From a virus (taxonomy: Duplodnaviria; Caudoviricetes): 64,000 bases of DNA. The translations under genes were made by a program, and so were the position numbers. Below are positions 5,897 through 46,686 of this stretch, piece after piece (within the stretch, counting starts at the first letter, position 1; each line of letters begins with the position of its first letter). The stretch is from IMG/VR virus record IMGVR_UViG_3300006143_000333, positions 64,959 to 128,958 of that record. One strand, 5' to 3'. Under the pieces are notes generated by a model that worked only from the letters and a program-made list of their open reading frames with translations, had not been told where the DNA came from and searched no databases.

Positions 5897-5986
5897 GCGT
5901 ACACACTCCTTTCATAGGTAGTGTTTGTATAAGTGAAAAAAATATGTATAGATATTAAAGGAAATTTTAAGTAGGAGGTGAAAAAC

Positions 5987-6112
5987 ATAGATAATCGTTG
6001 GAAAGTACAAATAGCTGCGTGGATCACGACTGCGATAGGAGTTATTGCAGGAGTATATTTTACGAAGTCACCTACATGCTTGTGGGCATTTTTATTACCG
6101 TTATGGTGTTGA
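5987..6112 (+). CDS. 41-aa membrane peptide, ATA start
   Basis: SD aggaggtg, then ATA GAT AAT CGT TGG; hydrophobic; stop abuts next RBS. Confidence 0.6.
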   Translation: MDNRWKVQIAAWITTAIGVIAGVYFTKSPTCLWAFLLPLWC

Positions 6113-6125
6113 AGGAGCTGAGACT

Positions 6126-6422
6126 ATGAAATTGATGGAAGAAAAAATACAAGATGTGTTAATCGAAATATTAAAAGAGTTTGGCATTCCTGAAAATTTT
6201 TATTCTCTTGGAGGATATGCAGAAGAAACAGTTTGTCTTGAAAAGAAAGGGGACACTTGGATTGTATATGGTGGTGAAAGAGGGCAAAAGCATAATGTAA
6301 TAACACATATAAATTGTAAAAGTGCTTGTCTTGATCTTTTAAGCAGACTTGCAGAAACAAGAGTTGAAGAGGAAAGGATGAAGATCTTTTTCGAAATAAA
6401 ATGCAAAAAGATAGAAGAATAA
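6126..6422 (+). CDS. hypothetical protein, possible Imm59-like immunity protein
   Basis: YSL..EETVCLEK..WIVYGGERG pattern; RBS aaggag. Confidence 0.45.
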   Translation: MKLMEEKIQDVLIEILKEFGIPENFYSLGGYAEETVCLEKKGDTWIVYGGERGQKHNVITHINCKSACLDLLSRLAETRVEEERMKIFFEIKCKKIEE

Positions 6423-6468
6423 ATATAGATGAAAAATCTGTTTCATCGCAGGAGGTGATTTAGAGTGT

Positions 6469-6711
6469 ATGTTACAAACCTTTGAAGAAATGTGTGATAG
6501 CGAAGAGATTTGTAGTTATTGCTCTCATACAGAATATGGAGAATATAAGTCTGGTGTTACACCAAATGGATATTGGAGTTGTGAGGGTAGTTGGTGTAAA
6601 GACGCATATGAAGATTATTTAGATGAGAATGGAACAACAGATAATATTGTAAAATATGCAAGTGTTGTTAAATTGGTAAACAGGGAGGAATTTAATGGGA
6701 ACACCACTTAA
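6469..6711 (+). CDS. hypothetical Cys-rich protein
   Basis: SD aggaggtg; CxxC. Confidence 0.7.
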   Translation: MLQTFEEMCDSEEICSYCSHTEYGEYKSGVTPNGYWSCEGSWCKDAYEDYLDENGTTDNIVKYASVVKLVNREEFNGNTT

Positions 6712-7297
6712 ATTTGAGTTTGATTTTGATGAAGTATTTGAAGGAATCAAACAGGGTGTAATAAGAGAATTGTCAGAAACAAATTTTGATGAAGCCAAAG
6801 AATCAGCTATAAATCAGATTAAAAGTGAAGTAAAAGAAAAGCTGGCTCTTACATATAGTGATGAATATGCTTTAAAGGATGAAATTAAAAAGGAAATAAA
6901 AGAGAGAGTATTTGATAAACTTATTAAAGATATTGATGACAAATATTTAGAACAGTTTGAAGGTTACATAGAGTCACAGTTGACAAAGAATCCTGACAGA
7001 TTGGAGCAGTTAAAAAGAGAAATTAAAGATGGGTTGACTGAAAATCTATATGATGATTTATATCATTCTATTAAAGAAGAAGTGATTGGACAAGTTAGAG
7101 AAACGACTACTCAGTTATGTAATTTGATTGGTGGTAACAGTGTTAAAGCAGAGGGTTCTGATAGAACAATTTCTAAAAAGGAATATGAAGAGTTGATGGA
7201 TAGAAATAGAAAACTCAGTGCTTTAGAGGCTGGCGGTGTAGATAACTGGGAATGGTATAGTGAGTCTTTAAGTCAGTATTATGATGAAGAAGAATAA
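6695..7297 (+). CDS. hypothetical protein with C-terminal LEAGGVDNWEWY phage motif
   Basis: SD ggagg; conserved-looking C-terminus. Confidence 0.75.
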   Translation: MGTPLKFEFDFDEVFEGIKQGVIRELSETNFDEAKESAINQIKSEVKEKLALTYSDEYALKDEIKKEIKERVFDKLIKDIDDKYLEQFEGYIESQLTKNPDRLEQLKREIKDGLTENLYDDLYHSIKEEVIGQVRETTTQLCNLIGGNSVKAEGSDRTISKKEYEELMDRNRKLSALEAGGVDNWEWYSESLSQYYDEEE

Positions 7298-7315
7298 ATA
7301 AAAGAAAAATAGTAC

Positions 7316-7361
7316 AGAAAGGAACAAAGGTGCTGCAGCCGTGAGATGATCATACCTTTCT
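7316..7361 (+). promoter_or_regulatory. Leader element E1 (SD/anti-SD stem enclosing GCTGCAGC and ATGATCAT)
   Basis: agaaagg...cctttct stem; same layout as 8751 and 15451. Confidence 0.6.
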
Positions 7362-7373
7362 GGGTAAAGAAAA

Positions 7374-8261
7374 ATATTTGAGAATAATAATTATGAATTA
7401 TGGCAAGGTGATTGTTTGGAATTGATGAATGATATTCCTGATAAAACTATAGACGCAATAATAACGGATCTTCCTTTTGGGCAGACTGCTAGGAATGTTT
7501 GGGATATAGTAATTCCATTTAATGACTATATAAACTTAGAAGTCAGAAGGAAGCCAAAAATATTTTATAAAGATGATTTTCTTTTATGGTGTTATAAACA
7601 AGGAGAGACAGATTATAACGGAGCAGTTACATATTTTGAAGAAAATAAATCTATAGGATTGTGGACTCAGTATAAAAGAATTATCAAAGATAATGGTGCA
7701 ATTATTTTATTTGCAAATGGTATGTTTACTGCCGATCTTATGGAAAGCAATAGAGAGATGTGGAGGTACAATCTTGTCTGGGAGAAAACTCAACCTACAG
7801 GGTTTCAAAATGCTAATAGGATGCCAATGAGAAATCATGAGGATATGTGTGTATTCTATAAGAAACAACCAACATATAATCCTCAAAAAACAAGTGGTCA
7901 TATCAGAAAAGTTAGTACAGCTTCACACAAAAGAAATAGTAAGCAATCAACAAACTACAACGAAATCAAAAATCATACATATGACAGTACAGAAAGATTT
8001 CCTAAGTCAGTTTGGCTATTCGCCAAAGATACCCAAAAGTGTGCATTAACTCCAACTCAAAAGCCAGTAGCATTAGTAGAAGAAATTATTAAAACTTATA
8101 CTAATGAAGGTGATACTGTGTTTGATTCGACTGCTGGTAGTATGACAACTGGAGTAGCTGCTATTCGGACAGGTAGGAAGTGTATTTGTATTGAGAATAA
8201 CGAAGAGATATTTAATATCGGTAAAAATAGAATTACGGAATGTGTGAAAGAGAATAAATAA
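7374..8261 (+). CDS. N6-adenine/N4-cytosine DNA methyltransferase (beta class), probable ATA start
   Basis: YELWQGDCLELM N-terminus, TDLPF catalytic motif, PTQKP, FDSTAGSMTTG SAM motif; frame opens after TAA at 7365. Confidence 0.9.
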   Translation: MFENNNYELWQGDCLELMNDIPDKTIDAIITDLPFGQTARNVWDIVIPFNDYINLEVRRKPKIFYKDDFLLWCYKQGETDYNGAVTYFEENKSIGLWTQYKRIIKDNGAIILFANGMFTADLMESNREMWRYNLVWEKTQPTGFQNANRMPMRNHEDMCVFYKKQPTYNPQKTSGHIRKVSTASHKRNSKQSTNYNEIKNHTYDSTERFPKSVWLFAKDTQKCALTPTQKPVALVEEIIKTYTNEGDTVFDSTAGSMTTGVAAIRTGRKCICIENNEEIFNIGKNRITECVKENK

Positions 8262-8425
8262 AAGTATTCCGAAATGTTTTTTTAAGGACTATTGGATAGA
8301 GGTATTTCTAATGCCTTATGTATACGAGTTTGTCTATATAGAATGGGTGTGATATCCAATAGAAAGCCAATTTTATTGCAAGAAAATAAGGCAATCCGAT
8401 GACTGCCTTACCCTCTTAATGAACA

Positions 8426-8590
8426 CTACTTCTTATGTTTCTTCTTTTTGGACTTTGTGTTAATCTCAAAATCTTTGTATTTAATATGTAAGTTCCTGAG
8501 AACAAAGCCACTTACCAACACCAAGATTGATAGTGCCAAAATGACACAAGTAGGTGTCTGAAAAAGTTGAATGATAGATGAGATATTCAT
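8426..8590 (-). CDS. 54-aa single-TM basic-tail protein (antisense moron)
   Basis: RBS aaggagg; own promoter; hairpin at ~8384-8412. Confidence 0.7.
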   Translation of the reverse strand: MNISSIIQLFQTPTCVILALSILVLVSGFVLRNLHIKYKDFEINTKSKKKKHKK

Positions 8591-8640
8591 AGGCGCCTCC
8601 TTTTCAGGAGGAAAAATTAGCTTAATGTGTTCGTAAATAT

Positions 8641-8670
8641 AATTATAACACAAGTGACTAAAATAGTAAA
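8641..8670 (-). promoter_or_regulatory. sigma-A-like promoter TTTACT-17-TATAAT with extended TG
   Basis: Reverse complement reads tttact attttagtcacttgtgt tataat. Confidence 0.6.
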
Positions 8671-8750
8671 GAAATAGCAATGAAAATTTCGATTCATTGG
8701 TAGTTTAAAAGTAGAAGTAACAATTAAGCATGTGCGAAAAGTAATCAAAC

Positions 8751-8796
8751 AGGAGGAAATGAGGTTTCTGCGCAGAATAAATCATGATTTACTCCT
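8751..8796 (+). promoter_or_regulatory. Leader element E2 (SD/anti-SD stem enclosing CTGCGCAG and ATCATGAT)
   Basis: aggag...ctcct; aligns without gaps to E3. Confidence 0.7.
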
Positions 8797-8804
8797 AAAG
8801 TTAT

Positions 8805-9644: not shown

Positions 9645-9666
9645 TCTTAAAACATCGGTTTCAAAG

Positions 9667-9812
9667 GGAGTCATTAGTTCATAACTGATGATTTCCATTC
9701 GAGAGATAGTTGCCTTACCAATTCTAACGACTCTCTTCAAACGGTAGGAATGGCGTTTACGACAGGTGGTAGTGAAGATCCTTCCTTGTACGAGAACAAG
9801 GGCAAACTACAC
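9667..9812 (+). ncRNA. candidate structured RNA
   Basis: Several nested hairpins in a ~170-nt intergenic gap. Confidence 0.35.
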
Positions 9813-9839
9813 TGAAATATAGAAAGGATAATTTAAAAA

Positions 9840-10091
9840 ATGAATAGAGATATAGGTGCTAAATTACCACAAACAAATTGTAGAACACCAATGCAACCTG
9901 TAAAGGAATTTGGTGAAAAAATTTGTGAGAATTGTGATAAAGAAGATGTGTGTATGTATAAAGAAGAGTGCATAAAAGCTATAAAGGATATTTTGGATAT
10001 CGAGAGTAGAACTAATGTGTTTATTAAAACACATATTGATTGTAAGAAGTGGAGTAAGAAGTCAAATATAAATGATATTGCTTACAGATAA
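9840..10091 (+). CDS. hypothetical Cys-rich protein, similar to 23557-23832
   Basis: RBS gaaagga; CxxC-x3-VCxY. Confidence 0.7.
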   Translation: MNRDIGAKLPQTNCRTPMQPVKEFGEKICENCDKEDVCMYKEECIKAIKDILDIESRTNVFIKTHIDCKKWSKKSNINDIAYR

Positions 10092-10118
10092 AATTTTCAT
10101 TTCAAAGGAAGGAGAAAT

Positions 10119-10379: not shown

Positions 10380-10614
10380 TTATATGATTCAGTCTTTACA
10401 GTTAGCAAAAGAAGAAATTACTTATGCAAAATGGTATACAGAAGGAAAAGAAAAAGATCGAAATTTTGATTGGTATGATCATCCTGGATATCAAAAAAGA
10501 AGTCCAAACGGAACAATAATAAGAGAATCATTAAAGATGGTAGGTAGAATGGCTAATATAATGGCAAATAGTATTTGTCTAAGCCCATATAATAAAAATT
10601 TGTATAAAGAATAA
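10354..10614 (+). CDS. hypothetical protein
   Basis: SD gaggt and open ORF. Confidence 0.7.
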   Translation: MMTIEQKIDYMIQSLQLAKEEITYAKWYTEGKEKDRNFDWYDHPGYQKRSPNGTIIRESLKMVGRMANIMANSICLSPYNKNLYKE

Positions 10615-10649
10615 ATCAACTCTTTCATTGAGAAAATAGGAGGGATGAC

Positions 10650-10895: not shown

Positions 10896-10918
10896 TTAAA
10901 AGCACAAGGAGGAATCGC

Positions 10919-12597: not shown

Positions 12598-12634
12598 TCT
12601 TGAAATTTTGCTTTCATTGAGTCAGGGGGAAGAT

Positions 12635-12907: not shown

Positions 12908-12935
12908 AAATAAATTATAAAGGAGAAAGAAATTT

Positions 12936-14236: not shown

Positions 14237-14278
14237 GGACTTAAAACCAGAGTTTCAAGGGAGATGGAGGTGATATAA

Positions 14279-15085: not shown

Positions 15086-15391
15086 GTGATTTTTATGAGT
15101 GAATATGTAGAATTACCAAAAGGTTATAACTTTGATACGGTATTTGATACTTATATTTTGGCGTTTTGTCCAGATACAGATTCATGGTTCGCTACTAATC
15201 AAAGGTTTTTCTATTATGAATACCAAAAGGAATTTAAAAGCGAATCTGAAGCAATAGAGTATTTTAAAAATAATCCAAATATATTTTTAGAACAAGAAGA
15301 AAGAATGAAAGTATATCGTCCAACCTTTTATGCTGAAGGAGTATATTTGGATAATACAAAAGAACTCATAAAAGTATCAATGAAAGGTTAA
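15086..15391 (+). CDS. hypothetical protein
   Basis: Open ORF with SD gaggtg; true start may be ATG at 15095. Confidence 0.7.
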   Translation: MIFMSEYVELPKGYNFDTVFDTYILAFCPDTDSWFATNQRFFYYEYQKEFKSESEAIEYFKNNPNIFLEQEERMKVYRPTFYAEGVYLDNTKELIKVSMKG

Positions 15392-15450
15392 TTTCATGGA
15401 ATAAAAATAGAAGAAATATGATGTGATAGTTGCAAATATCACAAATAAAA

Positions 15451-16509: not shown

Positions 16510-16553
16510 AATGGACTTAAAATCTTGGTTTCAAGTGGTGGGAGGGAAAGAGT

Positions 16554-19305: not shown

Positions 19306-19524
19306 TTGGAGTGGATCAAATGTATTTCTGGTCAAATGCCAGAAGATGATGAAAGATATAAAGGTAAAAAAGTTATTAATGTTATTGCCACCACTAATAA
19401 AGGGGTTGTTACGAAGGTACAAAGGATTTTTAATGATTATGCTAACACTTGGTATTGGGGAAGGATATGTGGAGGTATGAGGGCATGGATGCCGTTGCCT
19501 GAGCCATACAAAGAGAAGCATTGA
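19306..19524 (+). CDS. DUF551-like protein
   Basis: MEWIKC..QMPE...AWMPLPEPY. Confidence 0.75.
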   Translation: MEWIKCISGQMPEDDERYKGKKVINVIATTNKGVVTKVQRIFNDYANTWYWGRICGGMRAWMPLPEPYKEKH

Positions 19525-19570
19525 AAGCACGATTTCAAGGTTGTTTAAATAGAAACGGAGGTAAGCTTAT

Positions 19571-21400: not shown

Positions 21401-21447
21401 AAACGCACTTGAAACCCAATTTTAAGATTTAAATGAGGTGATTTTGA

Positions 21448-22285: not shown

Positions 22286-22330
22286 CAGTTGAAACCGAAA
22301 TTTCATTTGAAAAATAAAGGAGTGAGATGT

Positions 22331-22786: not shown

Positions 22787-22833
22787 GACTTGAAAGCGTT
22801 CTTTCATTTGGTAAATAGAGAAAAGGGAGGTAC

Positions 22834-23502: not shown

Positions 23503-23556
23503 TAAAAAGCGGTTGAAATTCTTATTTCATTGGGTGAGTTTGGAGGTGATTTGATT

Positions 23557-24968: not shown

Positions 24969-26039
24969 ATGACAGAAACAAAGAAAAAGGGAAGACTATT
25001 TGATTTACCTGAGACAAAAGGATCATTCCAGTTGAAGGGCGTTGTTAGTGGCGTAGAGAAGGAAAACTTCTATAAGGAAATTAAGACCAAGAGCAACAAG
25101 GATATGAGAATGATTAACTTTGGAGTTGGATACGCTGAAGGCAGCACACTCTACGTTAATTTACAGGGTATGGAGCAGGAAAATGTGTATTTCTCAAAGA
25201 AGGCTGAAAGGAAGGGCGATAAGCCTGAAACTGCAAAGGTTCATTGGGCAGATAGGTTTTCTTATAACCGTGAAGGATTCCGTCTTATTGGTAAGAACAT
25301 TGGAGTAAAGAAGAAGGTAGATGAGAATGGTAAGACCGTTAATGATAAAAAGGTCATGACAGACTTTGATGCTTGCAAGGAAGTAAATGACAATCTGAAA
25401 GATGGAGCAAGTGTATTTATCAGAGGTAGTCTTGATTATAGTAGCTTCTTGGATAACAACGGTAATAAGAAGACATCTACCAAGTTGGTTCCTAATCAGA
25501 TTTCACTTTGTTCAGAAATTGATTTTAATGATGAGAACTTCACTCAGCAGAATGACTTTATCCAGGTAATTGTATTTATGGGTATTGATCAGGAAAAGGA
25601 AAATAATAAGCCGACTGGAAGATTTGTTGTATCTGCAAAGGTTATTACATACAGCAACATTGAAGATGTTGAGTTCATTATCGAGAATAAGGATTTGGCA
25701 AATAAGTTCAAGAAATCCTTAAAGCCATATAATGCGATTCAGGTCAGCGGTCATATGGTAGCGTCTACACAGACAGAAACAGTTGAAGATGATGATGCCA
25801 ACTGGGGTGAAGAAGTTTCTATGGAGAAGGTTCTTGCGCCTACCAAGAGAGAATTTATCATTACCAACGCAAAAGGTTCTACTGTTGATAAAGAACTTTA
25901 CACAGAAACGAATGTTACAGAAGCTATGTCGAAGATTACACAGGCAAACAAAGCTGAAAATGATTTTGGTGGAGATGCTGACAATGATGATTGGGGAGAA
26001 GCCAATCTTGATACAGACGATGATGCAGCTTGGGAGTAA
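24969..26039 (+). CDS. SSB-like protein (SPbeta YorF-like position)
   Basis: Beta-rich, very acidic tail DDDAAWE; first gene of the replication module. Confidence 0.6.
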   Translation: MTETKKKGRLFDLPETKGSFQLKGVVSGVEKENFYKEIKTKSNKDMRMINFGVGYAEGSTLYVNLQGMEQENVYFSKKAERKGDKPETAKVHWADRFSYNREGFRLIGKNIGVKKKVDENGKTVNDKKVMTDFDACKEVNDNLKDGASVFIRGSLDYSSFLDNNGNKKTSTKLVPNQISLCSEIDFNDENFTQQNDFIQVIVFMGIDQEKENNKPTGRFVVSAKVITYSNIEDVEFIIENKDLANKFKKSLKPYNAIQVSGHMVASTQTETVEDDDANWGEEVSMEKVLAPTKREFIITNAKGSTVDKELYTETNVTEAMSKITQANKAENDFGGDADNDDWGEANLDTDDDAAWE

Positions 26040-26111
26040 TTCTTGGACTAAGGAACGTCAGAGATGGCGTTCCACAACTCTTAAAAATAATACTATTTCG
26101 GAGGTAATTTA

Positions 26112-27272
26112 ATGGCAAAGGCTAGAAAAGCGTCAGTAACACAGAGTAAGTTAGGAATGATTTTATATGGAGAACAGTTTACAGGTAAATCTACTATGGC
26201 TATGCAGTTAGCATATTTCAAGCGTCCAGACGGAAAGCCGTTTATGGTACTGTATCTTGATCCTGAGACTGGTTCTATTGATGATTATTTGGGTGAATTA
26301 GAAGCAAACGGTGTAGACCTTGAAAATATTTATATCGTATATACACAGTCTCTTGGAGAAGTAAGGGAGTACATTGCAAAGGTAAAAAATGGTGAGGATT
26401 TGTATGTTCTTGATGAAGAGACTGGCGATGAAACAGATGAAGTTCTTCTTGATGCAGACGGTGAACCTTTTAGGGCAGATGCGATTGTTGTTGATGGTAC
26501 AAGCATTTTAAATTTGACAACCAAACAGGGATTGATTGAGTTTTCCAAGAAGAGAAATAAGGTAAAGGCTGATAAGGACGGTCTTGTAGGTGATGCTCGG
26601 CTTGTAAAGATTGAGGGAGCAGGTATGGAACTGAAGGATTATCAGACTATCAACTTTAAGGGACAGGACTTGATTCTTGATTTGATGGCATCTGGTGTTC
26701 ACTATATTGTGACAGCAAGAGAGACAGATGAGAAAGAGACAATTAAACAGGAAGATGGTTCTACTATGAGTGTTACAACTGGCAGAAAGATTCCTGATGG
26801 TTTTAAGGGAATGACATACAATGTCAAAACAGAGGTTCGTATGTTTAGAAACGAAGATGGTGTTGTATGCGCTCATGTTAAGAAGGACAGAACACATACC
26901 CATGAAGATAATATTATCATTGAAGATCCTACTCTGGTCGATTGGCAAGCGGTTATTGATAAGACAGCAGATAAAAAGGCATTTGTTGTTAAGAATGACT
27001 TGACTAAGGCTGTTGATGTTGAGCAGAACATTTATAGTAAGGAGATTCTTGGTAAGGTTGGAGAACCTGTAAATGAAGAGTCTGCTGAAGAAAATAGTTC
27101 TGGTGTAGATATTGAGACAATGAAGAAAGAAATTATTGCTAAACGAAATGCACTACCACCTATGGAAAAGAAAGCAATGAAAGAAAAGTTGGAAGCAGAA
27201 GGACTACCTACAGCATACAAGAATGTAACAGATGCGGCTGTTTTACAGAAGGTGCTTGGTATGTTCAAATAA
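26112..27272 (+). CDS. AAA_24/Sak4-like P-loop ATPase
   Basis: GEQFTGKST Walker A, AIVVDG Walker B, KKDRT. Confidence 0.8.
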   Translation: MAKARKASVTQSKLGMILYGEQFTGKSTMAMQLAYFKRPDGKPFMVLYLDPETGSIDDYLGELEANGVDLENIYIVYTQSLGEVREYIAKVKNGEDLYVLDEETGDETDEVLLDADGEPFRADAIVVDGTSILNLTTKQGLIEFSKKRNKVKADKDGLVGDARLVKIEGAGMELKDYQTINFKGQDLILDLMASGVHYIVTARETDEKETIKQEDGSTMSVTTGRKIPDGFKGMTYNVKTEVRMFRNEDGVVCAHVKKDRTHTHEDNIIIEDPTLVDWQAVIDKTADKKAFVVKNDLTKAVDVEQNIYSKEILGKVGEPVNEESAEENSSGVDIETMKKEIIAKRNALPPMEKKAMKEKLEAEGLPTAYKNVTDAAVLQKVLGMFK

Positions 27273-38155: not shown

Positions 38156-38203
38156 TGTCTATATATAGCGGTTTGCAAAACTCAAAACCACTATATATAG
38201 ACT
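38156..38203 (+). promoter_or_regulatory. tandem NrdR-box-like pair
   Basis: tgtctatatatagcgg and ccactatatatagact, 32-bp offset. Confidence 0.55.
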
Positions 38204-38247
38204 AAGTATGCCGATGAAATAGGACTTTCAAGTGTGTGTGCAAAGTA

Positions 38248-38940
38248 TCATTGTAAGGTATCGTGGATACATATCTTACAAAAAAGTCTTCCTAATTCTG
38301 TTAATTCGATTTTAGTTGAATAACCTTCACTAGACTTTATAAATGAAGTTAATGCTTCATGGTTGCCCCAAGATGCTGTCATTATTTTTTCATGAATATC
38401 GGACTTAATTAATCCATTATGTTCTAAAACTGATAATGAAATTAAGAATTTGTATTCATTTTCTATATCTAATTTTATAGAACTGCCCTCATCAATTTTA
38501 TATATTTTTTCCATTAATTCTGCATCTGAAGAATTTAGTTGAGAAATTATATTTATAAAAATAGGATGAACATTTTGTTCTGTTGTTCTATCTAAAGATT
38601 TAGAAATTAAATTGCTAAACATTTTTCTGAGTTCCTCTTTTTCAACACAGTATTTAGCTTCTTCTAATGCTTTAGCAATAATTTGAATGTCTGGCTCTAC
38701 CTTTATATCTTCTGGAATTTTAGATATTTTTTCTTTTAGCTCCTTTTCAAATTCCTGAAGAGCGTAAGCGTATTTCAATTTACGTTTCTCAGCAGATTGG
38801 GAAATACCTCCAAAAACAAGATACCAAATATCAGCAAGCGTGGTTCCCATGTTTTGCGTTGGTTTATCGGTAATGTTTTTAACAGCATTATCAACAGAAT
38901 CAGGAACTAAGTCGATTAATGATTTTTTATCTTCTGACAT
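38248..38940 (-). CDS. DUF4393/Abi-alpha-like protein (antisense moron)
   Basis: EELRKMFSNLI..VHPIFINIISQL..LTELGRLFCKIC; SD ggaggt. Confidence 0.7.
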   Translation of the reverse strand: MSEDKKSLIDLVPDSVDNAVKNITDKPTQNMGTTLADIWYLVFGGISQSAEKRKLKYAYALQEFEKELKEKISKIPEDIKVEPDIQIIAKALEEAKYCVEKEELRKMFSNLISKSLDRTTEQNVHPIFINIISQLNSSDAELMEKIYKIDEGSSIKLDIENEYKFLISLSVLEHNGLIKSDIHEKIMTASWGNHEALTSFIKSSEGYSTKIELTELGRLFCKICIHDTLQ

Positions 38941-39018
38941 ATATGTAACCTCCAAATAGTTTTATAGAAGTATTATATAACAATTTACAAATCAAATAAA
39001 GTAGAAAGGAACAAATTT

Positions 39019-39345
39019 AGAAGAGTAGAAAACATAGAAGTAACATTCGATATTCCAGTACATTTTGGACAGCCAGATAAAAATGGATATGTTTATACAA
39101 AAGAATCTTGGGAAGAAGCTGTGAAAAAAGCGGCTGATATACCTACACCAATTGAAATCATTAATGATGATGGTACACGGACAGCATTAGGTGTAACTCA
39201 AGATATAAAACTTGTAAAAGATGGAGATGAAGATATCATCAAAATTTCTGGAATATTATTTTATGGTGGAACTTCTGAAAATGTTGAATTCACTAAAGAT
39301 GTCATTACTAATGTGACTTTAAATGGCATCGGAATTACGAAGTAG
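39019..39345 (+). CDS. hypothetical protein, start uncertain
   Basis: Frame open from ~39001; RBS gaaagga but no standard start after it. Confidence 0.5.
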   Translation, partial: RRVENIEVTFDIPVHFGQPDKNGYVYTKESWEEAVKKAADIPTPIEIINDDGTRTALGVTQDIKLVKDGDEDIIKISGILFYGGTSENVEFTKDVITNVTLNGIGITK

Positions 39346-39402
39346 GTGTGAAATGTAAGAAATAATACTAGACACAAATTAATGGTGTGAGGTGGTTATA
39401 GA

Positions 39403-40611
39403 ACGAAAGTACAAAGGTCAGAACAAAAAGTAATTAAAAGAGATCATCCCAAATTCAAGATAATTGATGAAATGTGTTTCCGTTCTAAGAATCTATATAA
39501 CGAAGCAAATTATATAATTCGTCAAGAATTTATTAAAAATGGGAACTACATCAATTATTATAATTTGAACTTTGAATTTAAGACACATGAAAACTACAAA
39601 TTGTGTTTCAGTCAACCAGCAAATTGTACTTTACGGCTGCTTGATAAGAACTGGAAGTCATACTTCAAAGCAATTAAGGATTGGAAAGAGCTTCCTGATA
39701 AATATTTAGGAATGCCCAAACTTCCAAAGTATCTTCCTAAAGATGGTAGATTCCCTTGGATGATACCAAACAATCAACTTGTTTATGATTATGAAAAATC
39801 TACCATTTATATAAGGAATCGTCTACTGAATGATTTTGATTGGAAATGTAGATGTTTAGGCAGACCAATACAAATACGTTTTATTCCGAAAGGAACTTGC
39901 TATGTTATGGAGATAGTTTATGAAATAGAAGTTCCAGAACAACCGTCTGAAAGCAAACATATAGCTGCTATTGATATTGGGGTGGATAATCTTATAACAA
40001 TGTCAAACAATATCGGCAAAAAGCCAATTATTGTTAATGGTAAGGTTTTGAAGTCCATCAATCAGCAATATAACAAGCAAAGAGCTAAACTGCAATCTGA
40101 ACTGAAGAAAAGGAATAACAGGAATTGGAGTAAACGTCTTGATTCTTTAACATTTAAGAGATTTTGCAGAGTCAAAAATTATATGCATAATACATCAGCT
40201 TTTGTTGTGAAGTGGTGCAAAGAAAACAACATTGACACTTTAGTAATTGGCAAGAATGATACTTGGAAACAGAAAAAGAAAGGTATGCAAAATTTCGTAT
40301 TTATTCCTTATGAGATGTTATTAGGACAACTGAAATATAAATGCGAAAATATAGGAATTAAATATGTAGAAGTAAATGAGGCATACACATCAGGAACAAG
40401 TTATTTGGATGACGAACTGCCAACAAAAGAGAATTATAACAAAGAGAGACGTATTCAAAGAGGATTATTTCAGGCAAAAGATATGTTAATTAATGCGGAT
40501 GTCAATGGAAGTCTGCAAATTATGAGCAAGGTATTCCCAGATTCCTATACAGGATATGGGATAGAGGTGGATCTAACGCCTACCATTATAAATGTTGCGA
40601 AAGCAACGTGA
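39403..40611 (+). mobile_element. tnpB: TnpB-only IS200/IS605-family (IS1341-like) element, probable ACG start
   Basis: NLYN, IDIGVDN (RuvC-I), EAYTS, INADVNG (RuvC-III); hairpin at 40623-40640; no tnpA nearby. Confidence 0.88.
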
Positions 40612-40675
40612 TTTATGGTAAATGGGGTTATAAAAACCCAATAGAAGATAGGTTTCAAGTACACAAAGAAAGGAT

Positions 40676-40945: not shown

Positions 40946-41000
40946 GGGTTTATAAATAAAGAAATGGCAATGAATCGCTCGTTTTAAGGAGGAAATTTAT

Positions 41001-41573: not shown

Positions 41574-41578
41574 TATAA

Positions 41579-41872
41579 ATAAGTAAAGTAGTATTTGTTA
41601 GTATAGATAAGCCGAAAAGATGGGGCGAATGGCACTCAGGAAGTACAGATAGTGTTTATTATAGTGATTTTTTAAATGAAAATGAAGATGTGAATAATTT
41701 TTTAGAACAAGTAAAACATGATTATTCAGATAATAATTTATCTGACAATAAATGTGATCACGAATATTACATAAAGTATGTTGTACTAGATTATAATAAA
41801 AATGACGTTAAAGGATTTGAAACATTATGTAGAATGATGAGAGCTTACAGTTCTTACAACAATAGAAGATAA
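41579..41872 (+). CDS. hypothetical protein, ATA start
   Basis: SD agggtg; ATA in frame 37 codons before the track start. Confidence 0.6.
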   Translation: MSKVVFVSIDKPKRWGEWHSGSTDSVYYSDFLNENEDVNNFLEQVKHDYSDNNLSDNKCDHEYYIKYVVLDYNKNDVKGFETLCRMMRAYSSYNNRR

Positions 41873-41930
41873 GAAGGCTTAAAACCACGCTTTTATTGGT
41901 AAAAAATTAGAAAGGACAATAGATATAAAA

Positions 41931-42662
41931 ATGTATAATTGGCAAGTAATGCATTTGTGTGATAGACAATTAAGAGATGTAAATCCTAGTGACATTTTGA
42001 ATAATGGATTATATAGAAGATGTGATATATATAAAGGTGGCGGAGGGTATGATAAGTTTTCCGATATTTATAAAAATAGAACTGGTCAAGTAAAAGAGTG
42101 TAATGAACAATTTGTTGTACAGTTAAAAGGTTGTCCTCTTAGATGTCCTTATTGTTATGTTACAGAAGATGGTGTACATAAAGGATCATACAGTTTAATA
42201 TCTACAGAACGGCTTATCAAAGATTTTTATGATTCTAATTTGTCTGTTCTACATCTTATGGGTGGTGCTCCTGCATTATATATTAACTATTGGAAAGAAA
42301 TACTGGAGAGACTAGAAGCACAATTTGTTTTTCATAGTGATTTACTATTGGTTGAAAACGAATATTCAAAACGAACAATAGAAGAATTAGTAAAATATCC
42401 TAACTCTTTGTATGCTGTCAGCATTAAGGGTGGAACCAATGAGGAATTTAAGAAAAATACTGGTGTAAATCTCAATGAAGAGCTATTTTGGAAAAATTTT
42501 GATATCATTGTTGACTGTAAGTTGCCGTTTTATATAACATTTACAGGCATGACAGGTGAAAGTATAAAATTATTTAAAAATATTCTTATACAGAGATATG
42601 GGAATCATATTTTAGATGATAGTTTTTCTATCAATCTTATTAATTATGAAGCTTTAAAGTAA
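41931..42662 (+). CDS. radical SAM protein
   Basis: GCPLRCPYC, LMGGAP. Confidence 0.8.
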   Translation: MYNWQVMHLCDRQLRDVNPSDILNNGLYRRCDIYKGGGGYDKFSDIYKNRTGQVKECNEQFVVQLKGCPLRCPYCYVTEDGVHKGSYSLISTERLIKDFYDSNLSVLHLMGGAPALYINYWKEILERLEAQFVFHSDLLLVENEYSKRTIEELVKYPNSLYAVSIKGGTNEEFKKNTGVNLNEELFWKNFDIIVDCKLPFYITFTGMTGESIKLFKNILIQRYGNHILDDSFSINLINYEALK

Positions 42663-42696
42663 GGCAATAGAACAAGTCTTTTCAAATGGAGGTTAT

Positions 42697-43110
42697 ATGA
42701 TAAAAGAATTTAGAGGTAAATATTATTTTCTCAGTAATTTTTATGAAGCTCAAATAACATACGATGGAATAACATATCAAAATAATGAGGCTGCCTTTCA
42801 ATCTGCAAAAGTATTGGATAGATCAGTTAGGGAGAAATTTTCTATGCTTGATCCGTCTTCTGCTAAAAGAAAAGGCAGACATGCACAATTAAGGCACGAT
42901 TGGGAAAAGGTTAAATTTGACATTATGTATGAAATTTGTATGGCAAAATTTTCTCAGAACGAAGAATTAAAAATCAAACTATTAGAGACAAGGGATGAAT
43001 ATTTAGAAGAAGGGAATACATGGGGAGATAGGATCTGGGGAACTGTTAATGGGAAAGGACAGAACAATCTTGGTAAAATTCTCATGAGAGTCAGAGAAGA
43101 ACTAAGATAA
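42697..43110 (+). CDS. NADAR (YbiA-like) family protein
   Basis: FLSNFY, EAAFQSAK, KFSQN, DRIWG, GQNNLGKILMRVR. Confidence 0.9.
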   Translation: MIKEFRGKYYFLSNFYEAQITYDGITYQNNEAAFQSAKVLDRSVREKFSMLDPSSAKRKGRHAQLRHDWEKVKFDIMYEICMAKFSQNEELKIKLLETRDEYLEEGNTWGDRIWGTVNGKGQNNLGKILMRVREELR

Positions 43111-43140
43111 ATTCGCAATTTCAAAGGAGGAAATATTGAA

Positions 43141-43515
43141 ATGAATGGTAAAGAATATCAGGAATTAGCAATGAGAACGTATGATGGATATGCAAAGAAT
43201 CGCTTATCTAACAATGTTATGAGTGCTACATTTTATGAAACGGCAGCACTTTTGAATGGTGTTTTAGGACTTACAGGAGAAGCAGGTGAAGTATCTGATC
43301 TAGTTAAGAAGAGTATTTTTCATGAAAAAGGTATTGATAAAGAACACTTAGAAAAAGAATTAGGAGATGTAATGTGGTACATAGCACTTATATGTCATAC
43401 TTGCGGATTTAATTTGGATGAGATTATGCAAATGAATATTGACAAGTTGAAAGCTAGATATCCTGAAGGTTTTGATGTTGTGAAAGCAAATAATAGAGAA
43501 AACGGTGATGTGTAA
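43141..43515 (+). CDS. MazG-like NTP pyrophosphohydrolase
   Basis: GLTGEAGEV, KELGDVMWY, NIDKLKARYP. Confidence 0.9.
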   Translation: MNGKEYQELAMRTYDGYAKNRLSNNVMSATFYETAALLNGVLGLTGEAGEVSDLVKKSIFHEKGIDKEHLEKELGDVMWYIALICHTCGFNLDEIMQMNIDKLKARYPEGFDVVKANNRENGDV

Positions 43516-43530
43516 GGGAGGAGATTTTTT

Positions 43531-43728
43531 ATGCAATATATCTTAACTGAACATGAAATGAATCTTGGATGTGAGTTAGTCGAAGTATGGGAAACAGAAG
43601 AAATGGATCTTGATAGTATCTACATAGAGCAAAATAATCTCCATAATTAGGGATATTTTATAGTAGTACATTGTACTGATACAGAAAAAAATTTATATAA
43701 AATATCCGTATTTCATAGAAATAAGTAG
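43531..43728 (+). CDS. 65-aa hypothetical protein
   Basis: SD ggagg, ATG. Confidence 0.55.
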
Positions 43729-43756
43729 ATAAATTGTGTGTTTCAAAGGAGTAAAA

Positions 43757-44107
43757 ATGTTTAAAGTAATTGATAAAAGGGATAATGACATTAGGGAAAT
43801 TTATGCTGTTTCTAATGATGAGTTTGATCCTAAATTTCTTTATTATGATTCAACAGCAAAGAAATGGGAATGGTGTTTTGCAAATTGGTTTGAACCATAT
43901 ACTGAAAATCGTTTTATGATAGAGGATAAACCATATCATTTTAATTCAGATAGAATTCGTGGCATTATTACGGTTACTGATGTAATAACAGGAAATCATA
44001 GAAATAAAGAATGGAAAACCTATGACGATGGTTTTAATGATAGAGAATATGTAATTGAAATGTTAAAAGATGTTTTGCTAAAAGAAAATAGCAAGGGAGG
44101 ATTGTGA
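43757..44107 (+). CDS. hypothetical protein
   Basis: RBS aaggag. Confidence 0.65.
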   Translation: MFKVIDKRDNDIREIYAVSNDEFDPKFLYYDSTAKKWEWCFANWFEPYTENRFMIEDKPYHFNSDRIRGIITVTDVITGNHRNKEWKTYDDGFNDREYVIEMLKDVLLKENSKGGL

Positions 44108-46032
44108 TTGGACAAAGTAAAAAGAATAAAGGAATTATCAAAATTGTTACAAAAAGCATCATATGCGTATTATGGGCGAGATAATCCTATTATGAGTGAC
44201 AAGGAATATGATGATCTATATGACGAATTATCAAAATTAGAAGTGGAGGCTGAATATGTACTGGCAGGATCTCCAACACAAAAAGTCCAAGGATATGTAT
44301 TAGATGGTTTTAGCAAAGTAGAGCATTCAAAGCCAATGCTTAGTGCTAATAAAACCAAAGATATAAAAGAAATTGAAAAGTTTATTAAAGGTAAGGAGTT
44401 TTATGGTTCATATAAGCTTGATGGACTTACAGTAGTAGCACGCTATAAAGACGGGAAATTTGTACAAGGAATTACAAGAGGAACGGGAACGGTAGGAGAA
44501 GATATCACAGAACAATGCAAATTTATAAAAAATCTTCCTATGGCTATTTCATATAAGCAAGATTTAGAGTTACGAGGAGAATGTGTAATATCGTGGAATG
44601 AATTTAAACGGATCAATGAGGCTTTAGATAGTCCTTATTCACATCCACGCAATTTGGCGCAGGAACAATACGTAATCTTGATTTGAATATTTTAAAGAAT
44701 AGGAACTTATCTTTTATTGTATTTGAATGTGTAACAGATATTGGGGAGAATAGTAAGTCAAAATCTCTTAGTTATATCAACAATATTGGATTTGAAATTG
44801 TTCCATTTACAAAATTAGATTGTACAATAGAACAAGCAAATGATGCACTCCAACCAGAGTTTTATCAGTATCCAACAGATGGAATCATTTTTGAGTTAGA
44901 CAGTAGAAAACTATCTGAATCATTAGGGGTAACGTCACATCATGAATGCTGCAGAATGGCGTTGAAGTGGGAAGATGAGTTGTATGAAACTACATTAAAA
45001 GATATTGAATGGAATACTTCAAAAACAGGACTTGTCAATCCTGTGGCAGTTTTTGAACCAGTAAATTTAGATGGGGCGATTACTACCAGAGCGACATTAC
45101 ATAATATTTCTTATATAGAAGATTTACAGTTGGGTATTGGAGATACAATTCAAGTATATCGTGCAAATATGGTAATTCCAAAAGTACACAGCAATCTTAC
45201 GATGAGTAATACATGGAAACTTCCAGATAAATGTCCTTGTTGTGGAGGAGATGTAGAAATACATAATGAAAATGGAAGCAAGACATTACATTGTATGAAT
45301 CCTGATTGTAAAGCAAAATTGCTTGGAAAACTTGTTCACTTTGTAAGTAAAAATGCAATTAATATAGATGGGCTATCGGAGCAGACATTACAGAAATTTA
45401 TTGATTTAAGATGGTTAGAATCATTCAAAGATATTTATTACTTGTCAGAACACAAAGAAGAAATATATAAACTTGACGGTTTTGGTAAGAAATCTGTTGA
45501 TAAATTGTTAGAGAGTATTGAAAAAAGTAGAAATACTACATTGGATAGATTCATTTATGGACTGTGTATTCCTCTGATTGGCAGAACAGCAAGTAAAGAA
45601 ATTGCAAAATTCTTTAACTATGATTATGAAAAGTTTAGAACAGATGGAATAGTAACGCATTATAGTCAAATTGATGGATTTGGAGATAATATGAACCAGT
45701 CGTTACATGATTATTTGCGAGAAAATCACATGAAGATATCTACATTGGCTGATGAATTTATTTTTGAAACGAAGAGTGAGAGTAATAATAATGCAAACTT
45801 ATCAAACAAAACTTTCGTAATTACTGGTAGCTTAAATCATTATAAAAACCGTGACGAACTTGTAAATATTATTGAACGGTTTGGTGGTAAAGTATCTAGT
45901 TCTGTGTCAACTAAAACATCATATTTGTTAAATAATAATGTTACAAGCACATCTGGGAAAAATAAAAAAGCAATTGAATTAGGAATACCTATTATATCCG
46001 AAGAAGAATTTGATAAAATTTTATTAAAATAA
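44108..46032 (+). pseudogene. ligA: NAD-dependent DNA ligase split by a 1-nt deletion at ~44659 (or sequencing error)
   Basis: KLDG, TRG, ELRGE, PRNLA|GTIR, DG, Zn finger, HhH, BRCT. Confidence 0.88.
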
Positions 46033-46286
46033 ATAATAAAAGAGAATTATCAAGACAATTATAGAGATATTGAATTTGGATAGTAATTTTGTCAGATATG
46101 TATGGAAATTTTTTAAGTAAATAGATGATTAGATTAAATTTTAATGAAGGAAAGGAATGAAAAGATTGCTTTATAATGGTAAGGGAGAGAATAAAGAATA
46201 TTGTGACAGAGTAATCAAGGATATTTTGAAACAATGGGAACAGAATGTTTCGGGTAAAACGACGAATCAGGAAGGAGATAGGAAAA

Positions 46287-46565
46287 ATGAGGTTGATTGA
46301 TGCAGATACATTATTGAATTCTTTGAAGAAAAATGTTCTTGTTGATGTAACATCGGTTTTGGAAGAAGTTATAGAGAGTCAGCCGACAGTTTATAATTTG
46401 GACAAAATCATTGAGGATTTGGAGAAATATGCACACAGTGATATTTGCCATGATTGTCACAGATGTAGGTACATTAATGAAGACAATATTAATTGTGAAC
46501 AGTGTGGTGCGCTTGGGGCATTAGAAATTGTAAAAGAGCTGATTAAAAATACTTATGTGAATTAA
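46287..46565 (+). CDS. hypothetical protein (MRLIDAD type)
   Basis: MRLIDAD...QPTVY pattern. Confidence 0.7.
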   Translation: MRLIDADTLLNSLKKNVLVDVTSVLEEVIESQPTVYNLDKIIEDLEKYAHSDICHDCHRCRYINEDNINCEQCGALGALEIVKELIKNTYVN

Positions 46566-46686
46566 TATTAGAGGAAAAAAATAACAAATAGAATAGAATG
46601 AAAGTGTTATTTCATCGTTTCTTGAAGATATGAAGAAATTTGAAGTATAGACAGCAAAACATAAAAGAAAAAAGGAGAAAAAGAGT

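Follow-up and report, generated by a model that had tools for sequence, protein, structure and literature searches.

Short inverted-repeat sites at the junctions between the accessory genes of a phage are best explained, in our view, as heterospecific Xer-type crossover sites, which let related phages swap accessory cassettes in register. We hold this reading with moderate confidence only, and the action of an enzyme on the sites is inferred and not shown. The sites themselves are shown, as are their placement, their conserved order, the crossover within them, the fidelity with which a spacer stays at its cassette edge, and the intact recombinase genes. The original prediction, made from the sequence alone, had seen tyrosine-recombinase-type sites marking swappable cassettes. 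This core inference is supported, with binding and catalysis by a recombinase remaining inferred only.

The Site Array

The host of the array is a large mouse-gut phage with a contig of 129 kb. The stretch that was analyzed, hereafter the window, is 64,000 nucleotides long, and coordinates refer to it unless stated otherwise. Each site follows the pattern T(G/A)AAA-N6-TTT(C/T)A (TRAAA-N6-TTTYA), comprising 16 bases with a 6-base spacer (the "address"). The window contains 15 exact copies, against 3.43 ± 2.01 expected from 100 dinucleotide shuffles (maximum 9), and the proposed enrichment check is thus positive. With a tolerance of one mismatch, further junction copies appear at 8360, 8681, 10612, 21410, 40642, 40971, 43108, and 43730. 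Once these near-matches and a copy with a 7-nt spacer (42668) are included, the total reaches about 24, which is the number originally predicted.

The array is, however, larger than was claimed. The whole contig holds 38 strict copies, of which 23 lie upstream of the window, so the supposed start at 5.9 kb fails at the contig scale. The claimed restriction to 5.9–23.5 and 38.2–46.6 kb likewise fails in part, given a true copy at 55589 in the nrd region. The array is essentially confined to the early region. Among relatives, the exact pattern occurs 43 times in G001 (8 for a control pattern) and 28 times in G004 (6 for the control). In G000 (the genome studied here), G001, and G004, the site motif ranks first among intergenic signals, both when dyads are counted without bias and in an EM search; variants of it were recovered in G002, G003, and G005. 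The G005 group carries TAAAA-N6-TTTTA, with the arms altered symmetrically, as would be expected if a dimer occupies inverted half-sites. A genome has about 40–60 sites, with centres that are all different.

Several structural claims of the prediction held. All 38 strict contig copies have distinct spacers, and the right arm is better conserved than the left, the conserved stretch per arm being only 5–7 bp. In line with the prediction, almost every copy falls in the gap that separates a stop codon from the following ribosome-binding site: 32 of the 38 strict copies are outside ORF bodies, with intergenic DNA making up only ~15% of the contig; a stop codon is 0–11 nt away from the first base of 20 copies, and the next start follows 12–28 nt after the end of 19. 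The left arm does contain the stop codon at 10089, 10612, 19522, and 43108, and the antisense gene (minus-strand ORF 8426–8680) is indeed flanked by the copies at 8360 and 8681. The cassettes consist of one to several promoterless genes with their own ribosome-binding sites, almost all oriented with early transcription, and the site marks the 3′ end of the gene before it. Relative to transcription, the flanks of the sites favor one orientation. A regulatory role, too, would fit the tight spacing ahead of ribosome-binding sites and the restriction to the early region, which speaks against the main reading.

Shared Addresses in Related Phages

When G000 is compared with G001, 22 identical spacers are found among 38 × 43 sites (0.4 expected), and their order is conserved throughout. 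Identity at these shared sites is mostly just the 16-mer plus 0–3 nt, both flanks usually being unrelated. A search for isolated collinear identity islands (≥16 nt), in which the motif was not used, returned 24 islands, 20 of which are these sites. Unrelated genes occupy 15 of the 32 slots between shared sites.

The individual sites, all on the plus strand, illustrate this pattern. The exact site at 6430..6445 (spacer AATCTG) recurs as the same 16-mer in G001, collinear and with both flanks unrelated. The site at 8360..8375 (AGCCAA; degenerate left arm, one mismatch) is the left boundary of the slot with the antisense ORF and has a collinear same-spacer partner in G001 with different flanks. 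At 8681..8696 (ATTTCG; degenerate right arm, one mismatch), the same-spacer partner in G001 has a homologous right flank but not a homologous left one. Exact copies at 9648..9663 (CATCGG) and 10089..10104 (TTTTCA; the first three bases of the site are a stop codon) also have same-spacer partners in G001, the former with a different left arm and different flanks. Collinear identity islands with G001 mark the sites at 10612..10627 (left arm TAAAT with the stop codon, spacer CAACTC; an isolated island) and 15381..15396 (GGTTAA, exact). The 16-mer at 12601..12616 (TTTTGC) is the same in G001 and G004, and the three genomes have mutually unrelated flanks on the left as well as on the right.

The extent of identity with G001 differs among the remaining sites ahead of the helicase. 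At 14242..14257 (CCAGAG), homology coming from the left stops 6 nt past the shared site. Identity is limited to exactly the 16-mer at 16518..16533 (TCTTGG), with 0 nt of extension on either side, and extends by 1 nt on each side of the shared site at 22791..22806 (GCGTTC). At 19522..19537 (GCACGA; stop codon in the left arm), there is a 25-nt identity island with unrelated flanks. The G001 counterpart of 22290..22305 (CCGAAA) keeps the spacer with a different left arm and unrelated flanks, and the shared site at 23514..23529 (TTCTTA) has a homologous left flank and a right flank that diverges after 5 nt. The weakest member is a candidate site at 21410..21425 (CCCAAT; degenerate right arm, one mismatch), for which no same-spacer partner was found among the sequences compared.

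Past the helicase, the same address series is found in five genomes, with slots of differing length and unrelated flanks. The first address, at 38215..38230 (TAGGAC), has a constant left flank and at least seven different right flanks, and the homology of 11 relatives with the window stops at 38219–38234. In L002 this address is missing and the helicase flank is directly joined to the next site. Spacers recur amid unrelated flanks at 40642..40657 (left arm TAGAA, spacer GATAGG; L001, L002, L003, and L009, with varying arms), at 40971..40986 (TGAAT, CGCTCG; L001–L003, in the same order), at 41880..41895 (CCACGC; G001/L009, L001, and L002), and at 43730..43745 (TAAAT, TGTGTG; L001 and L003, plus an island in G001). 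The variant at 42668..42684 has a 7-nt centre (CAAGTC plus an extra T), and L001, L002, and L009 have a 6-nt form at the same rank. The spacer of the site at 43108..43123 (left arm TAAAT with the stop codon, spacer TCGCAA) is shared with L001 and L003; the right flank is homologous to that of L003, the left one is not. At 46599..46614 (GTGTTA), homology with L001, L003, L009, and G001 starts at the site, where left arms differ and left flanks are unrelated. Finally, the exact nrd-region site at 55589..55604 (TCCGTC) has a collinear counterpart in G001 with the same spacer and a different left arm.

Mouse-gut sequencing runs point to the same places: 12 of 30 listed contig joint ends lie ≤16 nt from a site, where ~1 is expected (assembled contigs with short sides, not raw reads). 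Joints end at 6446 and 19521, beside the sites at 6430 and 19522, and contigs of three runs join at 10104, the edge of the site at 10089. In run X9, the loose end behind 22307 has the sequence that in G001 follows the address CCGAAA. The sites are not the sole exchange route, since G000 and G001 have many further mosaic boundaries elsewhere, at start codons or within genes.

Position of the Crossover

The original prediction had proposed in advance that gene-replacement breakpoints in relatives should fall within the spacers, and this check is positive. To map the crossover, site pairs were matched only via a flank 16–45 nt away, and mismatches were tallied by position. Pairs matched by the left flank show 0–12% mismatch across the left arm, the spacer, and TTT, which rises to 28% at right-arm position 4 and 41–70% beyond. 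Pairs matched by the right flank show 47–72% mismatch from −15 to −2, 20% at −1, 31% at left-arm position 2, and 25% at left-arm position 5, falling to 0–9% in the spacer and 0–10% beyond. Homology is thus gained or lost between left-arm position 5 and right-arm position 4, placing the crossover in the 6-bp centre. Arm variants track their own flank in 46 informative spacer families and do the opposite in 5.

Among 703 pairs that share one flank only, the spacer truly differs in 11; in about 98% of such pairs, then, the spacer stays with its cassette edge. The predicted Tn916-like tolerance of unmatched spacers is not supported, as the detected exchanges join same-spacer sites. The apparent need for the same centre partly reflects the limits of detection, since junctions with differing spacers would escape the grouping.

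Candidate Recombinases

The check for further tyrosine recombinases was positive, an Xer-like one being encoded in the early region. This better candidate lies outside the window, at contig positions 25816–26835 (locus L115:5816–6835), and is a 339-aa member of the Phage_integrase family (E 1.6e-22). Besides G000, clear homologues are encoded in the early regions of G001, G003, and G004 (four of the five genomes compared in full), and the early-region candidate in G002 is more divergent. The residues R, K, HxxR, H, and Y are fully conserved across six sequences, namely the four clear homologues, a close relative (L118), and a divergent late-region recombinase of G002. The best solved relative of the 339-aa protein is XerH (E 1e-13), and IntI4 is missing from its hit list. 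The site motif is enriched around 80 homologues of the gene. Recombinase identity is only 25–45% among genomes with nearly the same arms, and no clear co-variation of protein clade with arm sequence was seen; both points weigh against the main reading.

A second tyrosine recombinase, at 58667..59884 on the plus strand, is a Tn916/Tn1549-type integrase (phrog_1 integrase, E 4e-60; PDB matches 3nkh and Tn1549 Int), with a homologue only in G003 among the genomes compared. This is likely a prophage integrase rather than the array enzyme. We infer, without binding or cleavage data, that the XerH-like protein serves the array; with 2–3 tyrosine recombinases per genome, the enzyme assignment stays open.

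Proposed Mechanism

In the proposed mechanism, the two inverted 5-bp arms would be recombinase-binding half-sites around the 6-bp centre, bound by a phage-encoded tyrosine recombinase of the Xer type. The centre, unique within its genome, would serve as an address: strand exchange would occur inside it, and only between two sites with identical centres. The partners would be the same junction on two co-resident relatives, e.g., an infecting phage and a prophage. Recombination between sites of one genome would delete or invert genes; because all addresses of a genome differ, this would be blocked, and every crossover between genomes would consequently be in register. Repeated crossovers at various addresses would shuffle cassettes of one to several genes. 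As these lie between a stop codon and a ribosome-binding site, mostly along early transcription, a new cassette would be expressed at once. That exchange is enzymatic and requires matched centres is an inference, for which binding or cleavage data are lacking.

Alternative Explanations

The strongest rival, which we nonetheless consider unlikely, is that the sites are primarily regulatory. In this view, a dimeric DNA-binding protein of the phage would use them as operators or stoperators to time or silence the long early transcription units, on the model of mycobacteriophage L5, the phiC31 CIRs, or SPBRE/MrpR of SPbeta, and exchange would be a by-product of short-homology recombination at conserved sequences. 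In its favor, the sites occupy short intergenic gaps within operons, in the early region only, and their flanks are oriented relative to transcription. The inverted arms, 11 bp apart centre to centre, fit a helix-turn-helix dimer as well as a recombinase, and the motif family is retained across distant relatives. Moreover, a protein of SPbeta with a tyrosine-recombinase fold represses via a repeated element (PMC10516654). However, pure repressor stoperators, the main alternative in the original prediction, do not account for the data: an operator gives no reason for an identical 6-nt spacer while flanks and even arms change, nor for a homology step exactly at the arms. The identity shared at junctions is often about 11–16 nt, and at many only ~11 nt. 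Such stretches are short for recombination by RecA or an annealing protein, and searches of the five genomes revealed neither RecT nor ERF. Sigma-70-type promoters are not in excess near the sites, and the early-region recombinase retains all catalytic residues, whereas the SPbeta protein, MrpR, lost its own.

An integron-like array is very unlikely. Here cassettes would carry their own attC-like site, be excised as circles, and insert anywhere by a single-strand exchange tolerating unmatched centres. Promoterless, co-oriented cassettes that have their own ribosome-binding sites and follow a site at the end of the previous gene fit this idea, canonical attC clusters do occur in some phages (PMC9892861), and the joined helicase flank of L002 looks like a site-by-site deletion. 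Against it, address order is conserved in five genomes, and as cassette edges keep their spacer, cassettes do not move between addresses; this integron-like detail of the prediction is thus not supported. The sites are 16 bp without folded attC architecture, the recombinase resembles XerH and not IntI, and neither an attI-like site nor an adjacent integrase-plus-promoter unit was evident.

It is also very unlikely that the sites act as an RNA element, i.e., a small hairpin ahead of the ribosome-binding site for processing, stabilization, or translational coupling. They do lie on the transcribed strand, 0–11 nt past a stop and 12–28 nt before a start, and some are more stably folded than their shuffled counterparts (z −2.1 for the copy at 6430, −1.9 for that at 46599). 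Yet the hairpins are weak (−0.9 to −6.3 kcal/mol), and shuffles fold at least as well as the TAAAA copies. Pairing covariation is absent: a left-arm A meets a right-arm C, a would-be mismatch, in 10 of 38 copies, right-arm C being as frequent after A as after G. The flanking bases do not covary either, no Rfam family matches, and the crossover map is left unaccounted for. Lastly, exchange that is not site-specific (template switching during replication at small palindromes, or a site-directed nuclease cut repaired from a relative) can draw on the palindromic arms and on several nuclease-like genes in the phages (HNH, GmrSD_N) but is very unlikely, as the stem has just 5 bp and is not perfectly paired in a quarter of copies, and nuclease repair normally co-converts flanks, so that no sharp step at the arms on both sides would be expected.

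Relation to Known Systems

The crossover-site reading has its closest parallels in Xer systems with a single recombinase, such as XerH/difH and XerS/difSL, which likewise have inverted arms around a 6-bp centre. The XerH site difH is a TGAAAA/TTTTCA palindrome with a unique 6-bp centre, and recombination depends on the G and A residues of the palindrome (PMC3325230). The inner arm of TGAAAA-N6-TTTTCA is almost the same as that of the phage sites, and the similarity of the early-region recombinase to XerH also links the two. In contrast, difH occurs once per chromosome for dimer resolution with FtsK, whereas the phage has about 40–60 gene-junction sites with differing centres. The phage arms are one A/T pair shorter than in difH, with unconserved outer positions, and their 5–7 conserved bp compare with arms of 11–13 bp for Xer, Cre, and FLP, a point against the proposed reading.

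Many Xer-type sites per replicon, with arms and a 6-bp spacer, also bound the accessory (pdif/dif) modules of Acinetobacter plasmids, which occur in differing combinations among relatives (e.g., PMC6449649, PMC13141974). Each pdif site spans 28 bp, has different arms for XerC and XerD, and relies on host enzymes, whereas the phage sites are 16 bp with like arms and probably a phage enzyme. pdif sites alternate in orientation around modules that are mobile between plasmids; the phage sites, in contrast, keep a single order, appear address-specific, and bound modules that stay in position. Integrons and phage attC clusters (CALINs) share promoterless co-oriented cassettes, intervening recombination sites, and a tyrosine recombinase (PMC9892861). 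However, attC sites are folded single-strand substrates of 57–141 nt that travel with the cassette and recombine with attI, unlike 16-bp duplex-type cores in fixed order that keep their spacer at the cassette edge.

The stoperators of L5, the CIRs of phiC31, and the SPBRE of SPbeta resemble the array in that tens of copies are spread over the short gaps between early genes, and MrpR, which binds SPBRE, has a tyrosine-recombinase fold (PMC10516654). Unlike the phage sites, these repressor sites are near-identical copies without a variable centre (SPBRE lying at promoters) and are not reported as homology breakpoints; MrpR, unlike the phage enzyme, is without catalytic residues. T4-type promoter-early stem-loops (PeSL) and the boundary sequences of lambdoid phages are likewise short, conserved, and intergenic; they lie in hyperplastic regions and have been proposed to shuffle small genes through promoter or terminator homology. 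The phage sites differ from these in having no promoter or stable stem, and their identity is too short and too sharply bounded. In the R64 shufflon, the tyrosine recombinase Rci acts on several short sfx sites with one arm better conserved. The shufflon thus resembles the array in having one such enzyme, several short sites, and unequal arm conservation, but it inverts segments in the 3′ end of one gene, with a shared spacer and no exchange between genomes.

In heterospecific lox/FRT cassette exchange, sites have identical arms and differing spacers, and only like sites recombine. The proposed array would follow the same logic, allowing exchange and preventing deletion. The former is a two-site laboratory design, whereas the phage array would be a natural one, with dozens of sites and operating between virus genomes. 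If this holds true, the array would be an undescribed recombinase-type system for the orderly exchange of genes between phages.

Phage Genome and Its Relatives

The window corresponds to the right-hand half of one virus contig of 128,958 bp (G000), which is present in public mouse-gut metagenome runs; some of these, such as X6, X9, and X12, contain variants alongside the phage. Public RNA runs contain no more than small parts of the stretch. Nearly all genes lie on the + strand until window position 59.9 kb; a tyrosine integrase comes next, and beyond a strand switch the lysis and tail genes are encoded on the minus strand. The window encodes SPbeta-like replication proteins (a DnaE-type polymerase, RecJ, and a RecD2-like helicase), as well as NrdD, NrdG, DNA methyltransferases, an NAD-dependent ligase, and a P-type ATPase. 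The latter, a cation-transporting enzyme (E1-E2 ATPase, C-terminal domain; 3-2444), lies within the phage early region and not at a prophage border, since phage genes run on for 65 kb upstream in the contig. The ligase is encoded by two overlapping ORFs (192 and 449 aa; 44108-46032), both matched by a single 646-aa ORF in the related phage G001, and at 53560-55877 the N-terminal part fused to NrdG resembles an HNH/zinc-loop endonuclease. A tRNA scan of the window found nothing, and the INPHARED phage collection gave no megablast match to 18 kb and 12 kb of it.

With the helicase as query, we collected 80 loci on IMG/VR contigs of ~90-220 kb, and five of these relatives (G001-G005) were compared in full. 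In these genomes, late genes take up ~60 kb on one strand, and early and accessory genes ~100 kb on the opposite strand; G001 is classed as a provirus. Homologues in all four closer relatives exist only for the replisome block and three further G000 genes, and the content of the remaining early region mostly differs between genomes. Besides a recombinase gene that is discussed further on, the sole non-replisome genes conserved to this extent encode a sigma-70-like protein (194 aa) and a GmrSD_N (DUF262) protein, outside the window at contig 41803-43805 (L116:1803-3805, a locus from the same contig). Two further GmrSD_N paralogues are found at contig 18852 and 24176.

Placement and Anatomy of the Sites

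The pattern T(G/A)AAA-N6-TTT(C/T)A occurs 15 times in the window, where 3.4 copies are expected, and about 24 times when near-matches at gene junctions are included. The whole contig holds 38 exact copies, spanning 9.7 to 120.5 kb, of which 32 are located outside ORF bodies. A typical site starts 0-11 nt past a stop codon and ends 12-28 nt ahead of the next start, and the motif ranks first in both a motif-blind dyad count and an EM search of intergenic DNA. Several claims of the original prediction could be confirmed, namely that the stop codon is part of the left arm at four sites, that all spacers differ, that the right arm is the better conserved one, and that the copies at 8360 and 8681 bracket an antisense gene (a minus-strand ORF). 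Its confinement of the window's sites to 5955-46614 did not hold, as a true copy is found at 55589 and the array extends far upstream of the window. The 55589 site falls inside a small ORF that follows the NrdG fusion gene. The bracketed antisense gene is an 84-aa ORF without family match (8426-8680, minus strand) and the sole minus-strand cassette of the first block; in G001, the slot (i.e., the DNA between neighboring sites) running from AGCCAA to ATTTCG contains a plus-strand ORF instead.

All 38 strict copies show the anatomy of Xer/dif sites, with 5-bp inverted arms around a 6-bp center. The spacer seldom begins with A or ends with T (positions 1 and 6), and thus the length of the arms is kept exact. 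Arms of ~11-13 bp conserved between copies, which would also be expected of such sites, are not present: conservation covers 5 bp only, with a weak preference at two to three flanking positions. Both arms are of one kind, and all sites follow a single orientation and order along the early region. Spacers appear over-dispersed within a genome (5 near-identical pairs versus about 12 expected, in three genomes), but this is suggestive only. One site, at 42668-42684, has a 7-nt center with an extra T and takes the 6-nt form in three relatives; possibly, it is an address that has been put out of use. When the relatives were screened generically for further 5-N-5 inverted repeats, shared homology confounded the result.

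Conservation of Addresses Among Relatives

G001 shares nucleotide similarity with G000 over about 33 kb only. Nonetheless, an identical 6-nt spacer is present in G001 for 22 of the 38 strict sites (0.4 expected), in exactly conserved order. In most of these pairs, identity is limited to the 16-mer and 0-3 further bases, the flanks being unrelated on both sides. A motif-independent search of the two genomes for isolated collinear exact-match islands of ≥16 nt returned 24 islands, 20 of which are sites, and unrelated genes occupy 15 of the 32 slots between shared sites. Including looser copies, a partner with the same spacer exists in some relative for 23 of the 24 window sites.

Downstream of the helicase, one address series (starting with TAGGAC, GATAGG, CGCTCG, CCACGC, CAAGTC, TCGCAA, and TGTGTG) is common to the window and four other phages. 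Here the spacer is constant, while slot lengths differ, flanks are unrelated, and even the arms vary. In a more distant group of 222-kb relatives (G005, L198-L209; 59% helicase identity), the junction motif reads TAAAA-N6-TTTTA, with (C/T)GGAG behind it. The two arms are altered symmetrically, which would be expected of a dimer that reads inverted half-sites.

Three local features of this region deserve mention. The helicase stop codon is directly followed by a hairpin (38160-38205; stem ~16 bp, arms built on CTATATATAG) that is kept in 11 relatives, with the first address site ~10 nt further on; this hairpin may serve as a terminator or processing signal for the replisome operon. The slot from TAGGAC to GATAGG (38248-40611) contains a minus-strand ORF (phrog_2232) and an IS200/IS605-type TnpB-like ORF (phrog_506). 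This content is seen in this genome only; the slot differs in the relatives and is missing from locus L002. In the latter, the TAGGAC address is absent and the helicase flank and a left arm are joined straight to the GATAGG center (L002:12335), a joint that resembles the product one might expect of rare recombination between two different addresses.

Position of the Crossover

To map the exchange, site pairs were matched solely by their outer flank at 16-45 nt, leaving the site itself free to differ. These flank-matched maps supersede a histogram of BLAST end points around the sites, in which noise from diverged coding DNA limited the enrichment to twofold. In the 76 families with a common left flank only, mismatch remains at 0-12% across the left arm, spacer, and TTT, climbs to 28% at right-arm position 4, and is 41-70% further right. 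In the 51 families with a common right flank only, it amounts to 47-72% from -15 to -2, 20% at -1, and 31% and 25% at positions 2 and 5 of the left arm, before dropping to 0-9% in the spacer and 0-10% further right. The spacer is therefore common to both classes, and parentage switches between the variable positions of the two arms. The homology step thus falls between left-arm position 5 and right-arm position 4, which places the exchange in the center on comparative, not biochemical, grounds.

The variants of the arms track their own flank in 46 spacer families, versus 5 with the opposite behavior. A truly different spacer is found in only 11 of the 703 pairs sharing one flank, and hence a cassette edge stays at its address. 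As inferred from this comparison, the pattern is what reciprocal exchange within the center, between sites with matching centers, would produce; neither an integron-like system nor random breakpoints near a regulatory site would be expected to yield it. Many other mosaic boundaries between G000 and G001 fall away from the sites.

Contigs from four mouse-gut runs, belonging to four different studies, were also placed on 20 kb of the window. Of 30 listed joint ends, twelve map no more than 16 nt from a site (about one expected), and in one loose end behind the 22290 site, the sequence is that found after this address in G001. Since these are assembled contigs with short matching sides, we regard such joints as supporting evidence only.

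A Candidate Recombinase

The early region of G000 encodes, outside the window (contig 25816-26835), a 339-aa protein of the Phage_integrase family (PF00589, E 1.6e-22), whose link to the sites is inferred. Clear homologues occur in the early region of G001, G003, and G004, and G002 has a more divergent early-region candidate at 99.6 kb. A Xer-like G002 homologue reported by BLAST turned out to be a late-region recombinase and not the early-region counterpart. The catalytic residues R, K, HxxR, H, and Y are invariant across six aligned sequences (the G000, G001, G003, and G004 proteins, the close relative L118, and the divergent late-region G002 recombinase), in agreement with the R-K-H-R-H/W-Y set of tyrosine recombinases.

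Among solved structures, the best relative is XerH of Helicobacter (E 1e-13). The PDB matches also include XerD and XerA but not IntI4, and the structure of MrpR is absent from them at E ≤ 0.01. The XerH site, difH, is described as a TGAAAA/TTTTCA palindrome around a unique 6-bp central region, and recombination depends on the G and A residues of the palindrome (PMC3325230); the phage motif is identical apart from one A/T pair fewer per arm. Finding relatives of the recombinase required an alignment search, which yielded at least 360 in IMG/VR, as a single-sequence search gave one locus. In the surroundings of 80 homologues from other contigs, the motif exceeds a reversed control three- to fivefold. 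No co-variation between recombinase clade and arm sequence was seen across 80 loci, but this comparison is uninformative because the arms look alike in all clades. Regarding other recombination functions, each genome has two or three tyrosine recombinases, a serine recombinase is found in G004 only, and searches of the five genomes revealed neither a RecT nor an ERF annealing protein.

Alternative Readings and Known Systems

The nearest known systems are the pdif/dif modules of Acinetobacter plasmids, the canonical attC clusters of some phages, SPBRE-type repressor sites (after the SPbeta repeated element), and engineered heterospecific-lox cassette exchange. A search of the full-text literature returned no description of such an array in phages.

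The alternative that survives best is a regulatory one, in which the sites are bound by a repressor. In stoperator- or SPBRE-type elements, a single asymmetric sequence of 13-15 bp recurs many times almost unchanged and is bound by a phage repressor, whereas the copies described here share their arms only and differ in their center. A regulatory role for the same sites is nonetheless not excluded and might coexist with exchange. In pdif/dif modules, the 28-bp sites have distinct XerC and XerD arms and alternate in orientation around modules, neither of which applies to the phage sites. An integron requires an IntI-type integrase beside attI and a cassette promoter, and no such unit was seen in the phage; the recombinase gene is located within the array and not at its head. 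Moreover, attC is an imperfect palindrome of 57-141 nt (R''-L''...L'-R' boxes) that travels with its cassette, whereas the phage sites measure 16 bp and a cassette edge keeps its spacer and rank.

Readings at the RNA or promoter level were rejected. A base-paired stem is contradicted by the independent variation of left-arm G/A and right-arm C/T (10 of the 38 copies have the A..C combination). For an RNA hairpin, covariation is lacking and folding is weak (z-scores from -2.1 to +0.6); TAAAA copies fold no better than shuffled sequence, and an Rfam scan of the window gave no family match. A sigma-70 promoter would use TTGAAA as its -35 box, but the copies read lack a correctly spaced -10 box, and promoter-like sites are not in excess (97 versus 115 ± 11). 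ECF-type (TGAAAC-N16-CGTA) and sigma-54-type promoters were dropped because at several copies the ribosome-binding site begins 1-2 nt past the right arm, leaving no room for a leader. Finally, Type I restriction sites were rejected, since a phage should avoid them rather than accumulate them at junctions.

Implications for Phage Mosaicism

The sites are well supported as places where related phages exchange cassettes. That the exchange is catalyzed by a tyrosine recombinase requiring matched centers is the most economical reading and a likely one, although both catalysis and the need for matching are inferred; it fits the site anatomy and gene content, the abrupt homology steps at the arms, and the shortness of the shared identity, which is often ~11 nt. 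The weakest step is the assignment of the XerH-like protein as the enzyme. This remains a possibility without binding or cleavage data, given the two to three tyrosine recombinases per genome, the mere 5-7 bp conserved per arm, and the lack of observed co-variation between clade and arm.

A bolder reading, which we would neither bet on nor against, is that a family of gut phages of 150-220 kb organizes all of its accessory genome along some 40-60 heterospecific mini-dif sites that form an ordered scaffold. Owing to the unique 6-bp address of each site, a phage-encoded Xer-type recombinase would cross two related genomes at matching junctions only (a step covered by the same reserved judgment). 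The scheme would be a natural form of recombinase-mediated cassette exchange, and mosaicism would be programmed, in register, and safe from self-deletion.

The origin of phage genome mosaics is a long-standing question, usually answered by rare illegitimate recombination followed by selection or by relaxed homologous recombination. Here, the junctions are marked by a defined 16-bp site with the core anatomy of a tyrosine-recombinase target, and the crossover can be located to within ~9 bp by sequence alone. For genome engineering, the array may provide dozens of naturally occurring recombination sites that exclude one another. Should the link to the enzyme be borne out, this would be a new use of Xer-type recombination, namely in-register exchange between genomes at many addressed sites. 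The scheme would account for an accessory region of 100 kb, probably rich in defence and counter-defence genes, being turned over gene by gene and still kept collinear and expressed.
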